12,086 nucleotides of DNA from a virus (lineage: Duplodnaviria > Heunggongvirae > Uroviricota > Caudoviricetes): the IMG/VR virus record IMGVR_UViG_2740892234_000021; one strand, 5' to 3'. Position 1 is the first letter of the stretch, and each line of letters starts with the position of its first letter. Made by a program: the position numbers. Positions 6,001 through 9,000 of this stretch are shown in pieces.

Positions 6001-9000
6001 TGTCCTCTTTAAGCACCTGGCGTTTTTCCCATCCAGTGATTAAATCACCATCAAGTACCCGCCCCTGCATCGTCTGCAAAATTGAATCAATTACCTCTTC
6101 TGTCACGTCGAGCGCACTTGCCAAATCTTCTGTCGTGACATCAATGTGACCTCGCGTGACATTTCGTGACGCGCTCACCAGGAGGTGGATATACACTGCC
6201 ATCACTGTTGCAATTGGCTGCCCTGACACCCTGGCAATTGTTCGCCACTTAGGGTCATTTGGCATGTCATGCCATAATCTGAGCCAGGCGTTAGCCATAC
6301 TCACCTCTTCTGATACCGAATCTTTTTACTCACGAGTTGCCGGAAGCGATTCGATATGGCTATTGTCAGTCAATGAACTGCCACAGCATTTCCTGCCGGG
6401 CCACCACGGTTCATCTGATTGAAACCGGCGATTGCCACTGCGACAAAATCATCAGCGTCTCTCACCAATCGCTCCCGCGTCTCCACCAGCTCCCGAAAAT
6501 AAGCTGAACTGTGGCTGCGCATTCTGGCCACCAGCAAAGGTGGCATTGCCTTTTCGATCGCTGGTAACAACGCCTGAATTTTTTCAACTGCATCAGGGGT
6601 GTCTTTCTCTACCCAGCGGAAAATTTTCTGTGTATTGCGAGCCAGGGCTTCCGGATGGCTGTCGTCATACAGTTCAGGAAACGTCATACCCAACTCAAAA
6701 TAAGCCTGGGTTATTCCAGCTGCTGGAACTTTTTCGCCATCAGGACGCGCCCAGGCATTCATCGCCATGCGGATGTGCTCATGTTTGATTTTCATGAATC
6801 ATTTGCCTCTTGATGCTTCGGGTATGATCGTTTTCGTCATTTGGTTGCTTCATCGACATATTCTGCGAATAACATGACGAGCGTCGTAAGTATGTCCAAT
6901 CAACATCAGGACGAAGTTCTTCACACAGGACACCACCTTTTGTTGCTCGTTCAATCGCAGGACATCTCTCAGCAGGCAACTGACGTACACCTTTGATCCA
7001 TTGATTTACGCTTGGAGGAGATACACCTAAAAGCCTAGCCATTGCTGATTGCCCACCGACAACAGCACAAGCTCGTTTGAATGAATAGTTATCTTTTTTC
7101 ATCGAATGAACTCCAAAAAACACGCAACAATATTAGGCTTAGCCTAATACAATTGTCAATAGGCTATGCCTAACACATCGAGAGTAGGGATTGCCTAACG
7201 CGATGCGCATAGGAGACTATTAAGCAATGCTTAGTGGTAAAGACTTAGGCCGAGCGATAGAGCAGGCCATTAACAAAAAAATTGCATCAGGAGCCGTCAA
7301 ATCAAAGGCGGAAATCGCACGTCATTTCAAAGTCCAACCACCATCAATCCATGACTGGATTAAGAAAGGTTCGATAAGTAAAGACAAACTTCCAGAACTA
7401 TGGCGTTTCTTTTCTGATGTGGTTGGTCCAGAGCATTGGGGGCTTAACGAATACCCCATACCAACCCCATCCACTTCAGATACAAAAAGTGAACTTTTAG
7501 ACATAAACAGCCTTTATCAAGCCGCCTCTGATGAAAAAAGAGCAATTGTGGCTTTCCTCTTATCTGGAAATGCTACGGAGCCTAGTTGGGTTGATCATGA
7601 CGTTCGCGCCTACATTGCCGCAATGGAAATGAAGGTAGCTAACTATCTGAAAAATCAAGAATCAAAACGGAAAAGCCAGAACATCACCAAGACAGGAACT
7701 TAAACTTATATGGTCCGACGGGAAATTCCTAGTTCCCGTTAGTTAACTCCTACTACCTCTCCCACAAACCATCACCTATTAGGTCGCGCCCAAATTATTA
7801 GGCATAGCCTATTGACAAGTAATTAGGCATTTCCTATAGTTTTCCCATACCAACCCATCCCGTCCCACACAATACAGGGCAATACCTCGAGTTACCAGGC
7901 AGTGGTCAGGGGTTAAGTAGCCAGCCCGAGGCGTAAGAACATGACGGCAGGGTTCAACTTTAATAACTATGCAGCAGGTTTTTGTTCCGCTACCCCGGCG
8001 TTAAGGGGAAATGAGGTCAACATGGATACTATCGATCTTGGCAACNNNNNNNNNNTTCATGCTTGATTTTCATGAATCCCCCCTTGGTTAGAAGGCGGAT
8101 TATGATCAGAACCGGGAATGACAACCGTCGGTATGTGTAACTCATATTTGAGCGCCCCGGCAGTGACTGCCTGAATTAGCAACGCCCATTTCCACGGAAC
8201 CTCTTCCCCCCACATGCTGACTGTGGTTTTTGACGTTCCTAGAGCTGCGGCTGTTTTAACAACTCCGCCAAAATAGCCTAATACTTCTGATTTTTTCATG
8301 AGTCGCTCCATAAAACTGAACGCCAAAAGTTTAATAATCAAAACCAAAGAAAGTCAAGAAACAAAACCATCTGTGTTTTAAAATCAAAACATGAGCAAGC
8401 AAACAATATCTGAACGCATAACCCAACGTATGCATGCGCTAAACCTGAAAGGCAAAGACCTTGTCAATGCCACTGGCGCATCAAAAGGCTCCGTAAGTCA
8501 ATGGATGAACGGTGGAGGAGCGCCGTCCTCGCGTTACATAAGTTCACTGGCAAAGATATTGAAAGTAAACGAAAATTGGCTTCTTAATGGAGGAGAGTTA
8601 AATACAGGTGATTCGCTTGATCTATCTTTACCGCCGATAAAAACGGTTCCGCTACTATCACTTCAGCAGGCAGCAAGCTGGAGTGATTATATGAAAAATT
8701 CCTCAATAACCTCTTGTGTGCAGCTTGTCGGAGAAATCCCGGCCAATACCTTTGCAGTTGTTCTAGAGAGTGACAGTATGTCAACATCTGGTGGGGGAGT
8801 TTCCATCCCAAATGGTTCAACAGTTTTTGTTGATCCCGATCGAACCGTACAACCAGGAAATATTGTCCTTGCCTTACCCAAAGGGACCACAACACCTGTC
8901 ATTCGTAAACTGGAGATAGAAGGGCCGGATATTCTTTTAGTCCCCACGAATCCTCGCTACCCTTCAATTATGCTGGATGATCTATCTTGCATATTGGGCG

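Follow-up and report, generated by a model that had tools for sequence, protein, structure and literature searches.

The element described here is the core of an approximately 100-nt structured RNA at the extreme 5' end of a host sigma-70 early transcript, present in two copies behind the left promoters of two immunity cassettes in one phage sequence. Comparison of homologues showed that its helices covary, and the leader RNA is predicted to fold co-transcriptionally as one long irregular hairpin (Stem I). The view that the segment is a cis-encoded functional RNA is well supported, since it is conserved despite swaps of its flanks, is non-coding and covaries strongly. Judged from sequence comparison, our preferred reading, held tentatively, is that this leader RNA would act in cis and modify the early elongation complex, put-like in its logic.

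Results

Two copies of the element behind two left promoters

The window, i.e., the whole stretch of 12,086 nucleotides that was analysed (IMG/VR virus record IMGVR_UViG_2740892234_000021), is a scaffold with eight N10 gaps. The features that define the two copies and their cassettes are the following.

7227-7703, + strand: RacR-like repressor of cassette 1, assigned by a length (158 aa) and position equal to those of racR in K-12 Rac; no Pfam match
7812-7840, + strand: left (pL-type) promoter of the RacR-type cassette, TTGACA-17-TATAGT (promoter scan, 11/12 matches)
7854-7934, + strand: copy 1 of the leader element, Stem I and the start of the tail (covariance model R1, 91.5 bits, E 7e-22; repeat family D6)
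8391-9029, + strand: CI-like repressor of cassette 2 (Pfam HTH_3 and Peptidase_S24)
9114-9142, + strand: left promoter of the CI/S24-type cassette, TTGACC-17-TAAACT (promoter scan, 9/12 matches)
9154-9234, + strand: copy 2 of the leader element, ending at a contig end (covariance model R1, 99.8 bits, E 5e-24)

The repeated segment was confirmed. Each copy of the whole element spans 81 nt, with about 92% identity between the two (the repeat finder reported 7856-7934 against 9156-9234, 79 nt, 92% identical), and the scores under R1, a covariance model made from homologues of the element, place the repeat far beyond chance. The original prediction had described a near-identical 60-nt segment (7875-7934 and 9175-9234) with a single difference, C/T at 7886/9186; the shared core and its sole difference were found as claimed, but the 60-nt boundaries did not hold at either end. 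At the 3' end, copy 2 stops at the N gap 9235-9244, so the limit is an artefact of the contig end and no biological boundary, and in other genomes the homology runs on past it up to the first gene. At the 5' end, the similarity of the copies begins at ~7854/9154, near the transcription start, which lies at ~7847-7849 in cassette 1. Because of the N10 gaps, the scaffold order is no proof that the two cassettes are adjacent on one chromosome.

The element starts 14 nt (copy 1) and 12 nt (copy 2) past the -10 hexamer, about 6 nt after a sigma-70 promoter. An identical promoter precedes the element in K-12 Rac, and in Rac and the T7-like phages the distance from the start site is ~5-10 nt. Among the copies read here the element lies at most ~15 nt from the -10 hexamer, with the exception of the gh-1 group, in which it is ~100 nt from promoter A2. 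Both flanks are mosaic, with different repressors upstream and different first genes downstream. The two repressors, said earlier to be unrelated, gave a BLASTP E value of 1.8 against each other and differ in Pfam content, and the argument built on this, that the segment is conserved across swapped modules, stood: it is kept whichever immunity module and first gene flank it. The Rho-dependent terminator trac of Rac is another element, located inside racR on the pRM transcript (PMC4150792).

As to the proviso that the segment should not prove to be coding, no ORF of at least 40 aa overlaps 7850-7934 on either strand, each of the three + frames is interrupted by a stop (at 7914, 7918 and 7934), and public records mostly have nothing annotated at the element. 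An ORF on the minus strand (9136-9354) was discarded as an artefact because it spans an N gap.

Fold and covariation of Stem I

Stem I was analysed on separate alignments and on an alignment fitted to the model; the consensus fold of a mixed MAFFT alignment of Arsenophonus and other-group sequences missed it, with the strands out of register. The hairpin and its helices in copy 1 are as follows.

7857-7913, + strand: Stem I, one long irregular hairpin (single-sequence folds and covariation)
7857-7861 with 7909-7913, + strand: helix P1c
7865-7868 with 7902-7905, + strand: helix P1b
7873-7879 with 7895-7901, + strand: helix P1a, weak in copy 1
7881-7883 with 7891-7893, + strand: helix P1d

Minimum-energy folding gave the same four-helix hairpin in nearly all variants, and the single-sequence fold energy was no better than that of shuffled sequence (z = 0.08). 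A local hairpin, ACCA-GGCAG-UGGU, seen in a single-sequence fold was rejected because it competes with P1a, which the covariation favours. Covariation across homologous prophages, proposed earlier as a check, turned out to be strong for the fold of the + strand RNA. Among 73 distinct homologues, 13 of the 20 pairs were changed on both sides, with 131 double-sided cells vs 33±4 in shuffles (0/500 shuffles reach that number) and 82.5% of cells paired vs 73.4% in shuffles and 20-46% in slid controls. For 41 matches from all groups, aligned to the model and hence biased in its favour, double-sided changes were present in 16/20 pairs, in 168 cells vs 64.5±6.7 in shuffles (0/500), and 86.9% of cells were paired vs 65.6% after shuffling. 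In the core helices G·U pairs outnumber A·C (21 vs 5), which indicates the + strand RNA; a minus-strand RNA was rejected on this ground, and the direction of the promoter agrees with the + strand.

The apical module and the stem originally proposed

The most constant part of Stem I is its cap.

7880-7894, + strand: apical module CAATAC-CTC-GAGTTA, invariant save for the central triplet 7886-7888 (variant tables)

The apical loop is 7 nt long (7884-7890). The consensus of the hairpin cap is GGR-N-AAUAC-NNN-GAGUUA-YCC, a 21-nt apical module that is the same in T7-like phages and in the Pseudomonas phage gh-1 group. Both copies in the window belong to the early-leader hairpin motif, having a covarying Stem I, the cap, the AAGUAGC that follows it and a nearby sigma-70 early promoter.

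A CCUCG/CGAGG stem (7885-7889 with 7927-7931) had originally been proposed, in which the C/T difference at 7886 would turn a C-G pair into a U-G wobble. In the homologues its 3' arm is invariant, so there were no double-sided changes; the middle base of the 5' arm is U, C, A or G opposite a fixed A, and the pairing is lost uncompensated in Arsenophonus (GAAGG, UAAGG) and in T7-like phages (AACGG). Position 7886 opens the most variable apical-loop triplet, the NNN of the consensus, and for that reason the C/T difference carries no wobble-pair signal. The stem could form only as a loop-to-tail pseudoknot on Stem I, which we regard as improbable: 94% of cells are pairable in the 73 lambdoid sequences, a pyrimidine faces G at the first loop position in every case, and from geometry a 13-nt linker could span the hairpin, but no pair is changed on both sides, shuffling gives values equal to those observed, the central base is unconstrained, and ~2 bp are left in the Arsenophonus variants and the T7-like tails while the loop is unchanged.

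The conserved tail and the downstream leader

Stem I is followed by UAAGUAGCC, with no U-tract terminator, and the leader continues into the first gene.

7914-7952, + strand: invariant 3' tail, TAAGTAGCC AGCC CGAGGC GTAAGAAC ATG ACGGCA (alignments A2 and A3)
7941-8021, + strand: leader mini-ORF from the conserved ATG, in frame into ydfA here (ORF list, variant comparison)
7993-8008, + strand: second leader hairpin P3, CCCC-GGCGTTAA-GGGG, directly 5' of the ydfA ribosome-binding site
8022-8045, + strand: start of ydfA (DUF1391), broken by the N gap at 8046 (RefSeq annotation under the matches)

The RNA consensus of the single-stranded tail is UAAGUAGCC…GGCRUAYGAAC, which starts with AAGUAGC. 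A mini-hairpin is possible between GCC (7920-7922) and GGC (7930-7932); these are the only pairs predicted in the consensus fold of the tail, and they never vary. The tail is kept in part in T7 and in T7-like phages; the T7-like copies have no tail ATG and read GAACAUUCAGG. P3 is preceded by GTTCCGCTA, and its loop is constant while its stem varies (CCC/GGG in Rac, GCCG/CGGC in Pectobacterium, GCC/GGC in Superficieibacter, GCCG or GCCAG in Serratia). P3 is also present in K-12 Qin, although Qin has no main element, and it may be the relic of a nut-like site or a translational operator. The YdfA of K-12 matches Pfam DUF1391.

A Shine-Dalgarno-like GAGG (7928-7931) stands 9 nt before the ATG at 7941, and in phage Tritos the annotated CDS starts at this conserved ATG. 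Translational or attenuation control is an explanation to weigh, i.e., ribosome loading on the short leader ORF, modulated by Stem I, would govern Rho access or the first gene. Almost every lambdoid copy has GAGG-9 nt-AUG and then ACG/AAG GCA; two copies that lost this AUG retain an in-frame upstream AUG, and the 5' strand of the hairpin is C- and A-rich, rut-like. However, in relatives the mini-ORF has 4-20 codons and is not conserved (4 to >27 codons over all copies, with an unconserved peptide), the AUG is missing from the T7-like copies, and the C-rich strand is base-paired with covariation and so would not be available to Rho. Such control is in our judgement quite unlikely to be the function of the element.

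Distribution in prophages and T7-like phages

In E. coli the element is present, unannotated, in 4164/5426 complete genomes at up to 8 places per genome; in K-12 it lies in Rac between racR and ydaG. Prophage copies beyond E. coli were found in Serratia, Pectobacterium, Superficieibacter, Arsenophonus and Phlomobacter. T7-like phages of Klebsiella, Citrobacter, Salmonella, Enterobacter, Serratia and Yersinia also carry it, behind the first host-polymerase promoters (A1/A2-type), and the identical apical module is found in ~50 gh-1-like phages of Pseudomonas, Xanthomonas, Dickeya and Aeromonas. T7 itself has a truncated element at +35 of the A1 transcript and Yersinia phage AP10 has the element without the tail, from which it follows that parts of it are dispensable in viable phages. 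All prophage loci searched have a single copy per immunity module, and their right operons, including ~2 kb of that of Rac, yielded no further copy.

A boxA occurs downstream of the element in T7, in Berlinvirus and Apdecimavirus phages, in Serratia phage Kaonashi, in the gh-1 group and in Arsenophonus; no canonical boxA was found in the element-bearing leaders of E. coli, Serratia and Pectobacterium prophages. The Arsenophonus prophages have a canonical nutL (boxA, boxB, boxC) and an N-like gene downstream of the element, and in the element-bearing E. coli phages no N-like gene is annotated downstream. In the operon of phage Tritos, dicF is located upstream of dicB and exoVIII, and DicF is said to end at an intrinsic terminator.

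This distribution bears on the explanation that the segment has no function, being a recombination linker at a module boundary, a recent spread or an assembly artefact. The scaffold joins variant contigs by N10 gaps, copy 2 ends at a contig end, and mosaic lambdoid genomes often have conserved sequences at their junctions. The explanation is already contradicted by the covariation, as compensatory changes preserve the helices across genera, and the element is found in another phage family and in distant hosts at the same place relative to the promoter; we consider it extremely improbable.

In the T7-like phages the element stands just before anti-restriction genes, e.g., ocr or a SAM methyltransferase. 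This position, the fact that the element is the first transcribed sequence in two unrelated phage lifestyles, and the extreme conservation of loop and tail across hosts, which fits a conserved host target, are consistent with a trans-acting early phage RNA, the processed leader titrating a conserved host factor or a component of a defence system. Against it, neither a terminator nor a defined 3' end follows the element, no sequence complementary to it was identified as a target, and no such small RNA has been reported, Hfq cross-linking in EHEC having highlighted other prophage positions (PMC4104026). A trans-acting role is rather unlikely.

Comparison with known RNA elements

Judged by its sequence, the element matches no described RNA family and appears to be previously undescribed. 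A scan of the whole window with Rfam 15 (E <= 1) gave no match over 7850-8045 or 9150-9234, and a scan for intrinsic terminators found none at 7840-8045 or 9140-9234. The papers covered on Rac, ydaG and ydfA and on the T7 leader and boxA held no description of it. By-eye likenesses to ops/JUMPStart, a K-turn, the sarcin-ricin motif, a tRNA T-loop or anticodon-loop mimic and a sigma-dependent pause hexamer were dropped, none being conserved across the variants.

The closest parallel in logic is the put RNA of phage HK022, a protein-independent antiterminator that suppresses terminators in cis by way of the beta' zinc-binding domain. Like put, the element is a nascent structured RNA of ~70-100 nt directly past an early left promoter, with irregular stems and conserved unpaired bases, and annotation of the E. 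coli phages that bear it shows no N gene; putL is likewise found just after pL in HK022 (PMC9378689). Unlike put, which is about 70 nt long and has two stem-loops with a triplex, the element is one long hairpin with a tail; it has no counterpart of putR in the right operons searched, and it is also found in T7-like phages and beside canonical nut sites. Some put phages may carry one site only. R1 gave no match to HK022 putL or putR, BLAST with the element found no HK022-type phage, and a 13-nt resemblance to putR (CCCGGC-GUGGUCA) was set aside as chance, since it falls in the variable part of Stem I.

With lambda-type nut sites the element shares the location in the pL leader and a hairpin with an invariant loop region, but it has neither the boxA consensus (C/U)GCUCUU(U)A nor a boxB hairpin with a GAAAA/GACAA- or GNRA-like pentaloop. 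In agreement with the original reading, in which boxA and boxB were not recognised, neither motif is found inside 7854-7952. The element was rejected as a nut site because in Arsenophonus the nutL, CGCUCUUUAAC … UCGCUGAAAAAGCGA … GGGGUGUGUGA, is a separate downstream unit. Resemblance to the part of the lambda leader directly 5' of boxA is confined to the final bases of the tail, CAUGAAGG…GUGACG. The rrn and T7 early leaders, with boxA-dependent antitermination by Nus factors, are similar in that the host polymerase transcribes an untranslated leader with a hairpin 5' of a canonical boxA, but the element itself contains no known Nus-factor binding motif.

The hairpins of the lambda N leader and of T7 R0.3, which are RNase III substrates, are also long, imperfect and located in early untranslated leaders. 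By analogy, the element may be a 5' stability or processing module, in which the hairpin would block 5'-end-dependent decay or be cut by RNase III or RNase E to generate the mature 5' end. This explanation is unlikely, though a long irregular hairpin at most ~10 nt from the transcription start is what it would call for, and in AP10 Stem I adjoins sequence matching the stretch just upstream of T7 gene 0.3, presumably the R0.3 RNase III site; cleavage there would free an ~85-nt RNA that is nearly all Stem I. In addition, the ydfA transcript of K-12 Qin is lost in an rnc mutant, here from a leader without the element (PMC10448788). On the other side, ~40 invariant unpaired nucleotides would be needless for a protective hairpin or an RNase III site, as would a 21-nt apical module kept unchanged between E. 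coli prophages and phages of Pseudomonas, and helices of 3-7 bp interrupted by internal loops are, like the conserved loop and tail sequence, atypical of what RNase III needs.

Discussion

Among the explanations considered, we prefer the one in which the leader RNA modifies the early elongation complex. The invariant unpaired nucleotides would be touched by a conserved part of the host apparatus, for which the transcribing RNA polymerase or its Nus partners are the likeliest candidates. Acting in cis, the RNA would influence the very complex that transcribes it, and early transcription would stay processive over the long untranslated leader and over internal terminators, both Rho-dependent and intrinsic. 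Where a boxA follows, as in the leaders read from T7-like and gh-1-like phages and from Arsenophonus, the element may cooperate with it. In favour of this reading we count the covarying fold, the place near the promoter (shared with putL), the broad distribution, the mosaic flanks, and a likely need for read-through in E. coli phages that have no annotated N-like gene downstream, with dicF lying in the operon of Tritos.

A more specific form of this proposal, possible but somewhat doubtful, is that the element represents a new class of RNA polymerase-modifying RNA common to temperate lambdoid and lytic T7-like phages of gamma-proteobacteria. Such an RNA would bind the host elongation complex as it emerges, either alone or with boxA and Nus factors, and would confer resistance to Rho and terminators in the absence of any phage protein. 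In Arsenophonus an autonomous antiterminator would be redundant because a canonical nutL and an N-like gene are present there. A simple terminator scan downstream of the element flagged none in the loci examined, which argues against a read-through role. The lack of put homology, the lack of a right-operon copy, the loss of the element from Qin, the stump in T7, the missing tail in AP10 and the fold energy no better than that of shuffled sequence also speak against an antitermination reading.

The element provides a candidate for read-through of the left operon in lambdoid phages without an N gene (Rac and Qin types), and a candidate role for the long untranslated early leader of T7-like phages beyond promoters, boxA and the RNase III site. 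One RNA module common to both groups is a concrete and easily testable candidate. Most E. coli genomes carry the element, and in K-12 it precedes ydaG and kilR of Rac; for this reason it may also touch on how toxic prophage genes are silenced and switched on. We know of no phage RNA family besides put that binds RNA polymerase; if binding to RNA polymerase is true of the element, it would be the second such family, and one far more widespread than put.

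Two copies in the window

Each copy starts 12-14 nt past the -10 hexamer of a sigma-70 promoter detected by promoter scan, with a repressor gene upstream of each promoter:

7812-7840, promoter of copy 1 (11/12 matches)
9114-9142, promoter of copy 2 (9/12 matches)

The cassette 1 repressor is RacR-sized (158 aa) and RacR-like, with no Pfam family, and that of cassette 2 carries HTH_3 and Peptidase_S24 (Pfam); they are unrelated, as originally predicted (BLASTP of one against the other, E = 1.8). A perfect 21-nt inverted repeat (TTGTCAATAGGCTATGCCTAA / TTAGGCATAGCCTATTGACAA, at 7153-7173 and 7798-7818) overlaps the -35 hexamers of two divergent promoters bordering the RacR-like gene, and more TTAGGC-N-GCCTA copies are found at 7126-7147 and 7816-7837; together they presumably make up the operators of the RacR-like immunity type.

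A repeat search of the window gave 92% identity over 79 nt between 7856-7934 and 9156-9234, and the predicted near-identity of 7875-7934 and 9175-9234 was confirmed, the only difference being at 7886/9186. The 60-nt length given to this segment did not stand: copy 2 stops exactly at the gap 9235-9244, so that its 3' limit is a contig end, and in other genomes the similarity extends a further 90-110 nt, as far as the first gene of the operon. The window has eight runs of exactly 10 N (at 1903, 3197, 4978, 5508, 5737, 8046, 9235 and 9515) and near-identical variant pairs across gaps (4649-4948/5010-5309, 5426-5507/5519-5600, 5621-5736/5748-5863 and 9333-9514/9526-9708); it is therefore a scaffold of contigs joined by N10, and the adjacency of its features across N gaps cannot be trusted.

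Elsewhere in the window, 10994-11082 (-) matches Rfam sRNA-Xcc1 (RF02221; E 3.6e-11, 69.1 bits where the gathering score is 53). Short direct repeats cluster at 5872-5910, 6132-6170 and 11316-11371, their units being (C)GTGAC every 8-10 nt and TGTTTGGGGCA-N-TTGGGGCAAAA twice; they resemble iterons or arrays of binding sites.

RNA structure and covariation

The variants compared form a single long irregular hairpin, Stem I, whose helices change in sequence between lineages while complementarity is kept:

7857-7861 with 7909-7913, helix P1c
7865-7868 with 7902-7905, helix P1b (variants CCAC/GUGG, CGCAU/AUGCG, GGCAGAA/UUCUGCC, GGCAAA/UUUGCC)
7873-7879 with 7895-7901, helix P1a (variants GCCGGG/CCCGGC, GGCUGGA/UCCAGCC, CGCUGAG/CUCAGCG, CACGAAG/CUUUGUG, CAGA/UCUG, AAGA/UCUU)
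7881-7883 with 7891-7893, helix P1d
7884-7890, apical loop (7 nt)

Single-sequence minimum-energy folding gave the same architecture in nearly all variants. Covariation across homologues, the check proposed with the original prediction, was measured on 73 distinct sequences, the Arsenophonus group excluded, in a MAFFT alignment free of gaps. Both sides changed at 13 of the 20 Stem I pairs, in 131 cells against 33±4 in shuffles (0/500 as high); 82.5% of cells paired versus 73.4% when shuffled, and pairing fell to 20-46% when the partner was shifted by 1-3 columns. An alignment of all groups (41 matches), which leans towards the covariance model built from the homologues because it was fitted to it, gave 86.9% versus 65.6% pairing, with 16/20 pairs and 168 cells (64.5±6.7 in shuffles) changed on both sides. 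The core helices contain 21 G·U against 5 A·C, which together with the promoter orientation points to a + strand RNA.

The stem first proposed, CCUCG (7885-7889) with CGAGG (7927-7931), can pair in 94% of cells, and this proposal fared poorly: no pair changes on both sides, since the 3' arm is invariant, shuffles match the real data, and the central base varies freely opposite a fixed A. Pairing is lost, uncompensated, in Arsenophonus (variants GAAGG and UAAGG) and in the T7-like copies (AACGG). The stem could form only as a pseudoknot between apical loop and tail, and it is not required.

About 40 unpaired nucleotides of the element are invariant. The hairpin top, CAAUAC-NNN-GAGUUA, varies only in its central triplet, which takes at least twelve forms (CUC, UUC, CAA, CAU, CCC, CAC, UCC, CUA, UUU, UGC, CUU, UAC) and whose first base is 7886, the C/T difference. 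The hairpin is followed by a nearly invariant tail, UAAGUAGCC-AGCC-YGAGGC-RUAY-GAAC-AUG-AMG-GCA. Coding by the segment itself is excluded by stop codons in all three frames (7914, 7918, 7934) and by the lack, on both strands, of an ORF of 40 aa or more across it. The conserved AUG at 7941 starts a mini-ORF that varies in length and sequence and continues in frame into ydfA in the window and in phage Tritos; translational or Rho attenuation through this mini-ORF is the alternative function in which we have the third-highest confidence.

Distribution in prophages

The 190 nt from 7856 were matched in 4164 of 5426 complete E. coli genomes, at a median of one and a maximum of eight places per genome, with no annotation beneath the element itself. 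When viral contigs and one genome per species were scanned, variants turned up in Shigella, Escherichia ruysiae, Serratia, Pectobacterium, Superficieibacter, Arsenophonus and Phlomobacter. In every locus with context examined, the element lies downstream of an immunity repressor and its left promoter, with differing flanks on both sides. The K-12 Rac prophage has it between racR and ydaG, after the same TTGACA-17-TATAGT promoter; in K-12 Qin (dicA-ydfA) it is lost, and only the last hairpin of the leader remains. The Rac Rho-dependent terminator trac, which sits within racR, was ruled out as the element. The RefSeq small RNA KilS (1906-2003 of the Rac sequence L254), upstream of kilR, lies in the same left operon that starts with the element.

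T7-like and gh-1-like phages

A sensitive search using the Arsenophonus leader matched a T7-like Klebsiella phage, K12P1.1. There the full element (38.9 bits, E 3e-9) comes right after a TTGACA-17-CATTAT host promoter, and downstream of it lie another promoter, a canonical boxA and the first early gene; the same arrangement was found in Citrobacter phage YSYH, Salmonella phage Ayanbimpe, Enterobacter phage NJ2, Klebsiella phage phi1_066062, Serratia phage Kaonashi (45.8 bits) and Yersinia phage AP10. T7 has a truncated element at +35 to +74 of the A1 transcript (CCGG-GGUCAA-CCGG, then AUAAGUAGACAGCCUGAUAAGU; 16.9 bits, E 7e-4 in 3.5 kb). Some fifty gh-1-like phages, which infect Pseudomonas, Xanthomonas, Dickeya and Aeromonas, share the 21-nt apical module GGGCAAUACUUCGAGUUACCC with the E. 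coli prophages without a single change, flanked by helices CACA-GCU-GGG … CCC-AGC-UGUG and then AGUAGC. Three of these phages were inspected, and there the module has host promoters on either side and boxA downstream; the hits in the others are about as far from the genome end. T7-like phages with the element after their first host-polymerase promoters and ahead of a canonical boxA comprise Berlinvirus and Apdecimavirus members as well as Kaonashi and the gh-1 group. T7-like copies show compensated helix differences (e.g., CAGG/CCUG versus GACG/CGUU) and have neither the mini-ORF AUG nor the CGAGG of the first-proposed stem. Sites in these comparison sequences are:

L255, 4173-4262
L256, 532-571
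L257, 640-660
L258, 691-775
L262, 540-560
L259-L261, further sites

Comparison with nut and put

Arsenophonus and Phlomobacter prophages have a textbook nutL about 25-40 nt downstream of the element (boxA CGCUCUUUAAC, boxB UCGCUGAAAAAGCGA, boxC GGGGUGUGUGA), followed by an ORF with an arginine-rich N terminus (Pfam N_peptide 25.9 bits, E 1.5e-5, slightly below cut-off). This makes the element a unit of its own, lying upstream of nut, and no disguised nut. Its tail in these prophages (CAUGAAGGCAAGUGACG) resembles the lambda pL leader immediately 5' of boxA. These genomes also have prophage immunity modules in tandem (L243, 4377-5007 and 7061-7706; also L248, L232 and L227), and in each the order is cro, cI, pL, element, boxA-boxB-boxC and N-like gene.

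Where nut would be, just before the first gene, the leaders from E. coli, Serratia and Pectobacterium have a second hairpin, with a covarying stem that differs among genera and a constant loop; it overlaps the ribosome-binding region of that gene:

7993-8008, second leader hairpin in the window (CCCC-GGCGUUAA-GGGG, preceded by GUUCCGCYA)
L254 (K-12 Rac), about 2969-2984, minus strand
L253, 1968-1995

In the Pectobacterium ORF after it (L236, 6464-6595, 43 aa) the N terminus is rich in arginine and N-like by eye, with no Pfam support.

As in HK022 put, the element stands at the beginning of the pL transcript, and an annotated N gene is absent in the E. coli phages examined. HK022 putL and putR, read from the genome record, showed no link to it by BLAST or covariance model, and put folds into two stem-loops with a triplex (PMC9378689), whereas the element is one long hairpin. 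The covariance model found no second copy in any right operon searched.

Interpretation

The element is a conserved structured RNA motif that matches no Rfam family, and no description of it was found in the literature searched by sequence string and by context. Two unrelated phage groups carry it, and almost every inspected copy sits at the 5' end of an early transcript made by the host polymerase. This position could also suit a 5' stability or processing module, the alternative in which we have most confidence, or a trans-acting early RNA, which comes second. Against a role in processivity stand its coexistence with N and nut in Arsenophonus, the absence of a right-operon copy, the truncation in T7 and the deletion in K-12 Qin. 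Conservation across hosts independently of neighboring genes suggests a conserved host partner, and the fixed place at the transcript start suggests action on or with the transcribing polymerase; together these lead us to favor, tentatively and with well under even confidence, an element that acts in cis on processivity (anti-Rho or antitermination) and follows the logic of put. A conserved host machine would contact the element RNA, which would act in cis on, or together with, the polymerase transcribing the early region, possibly in cooperation with boxA and Nus factors.
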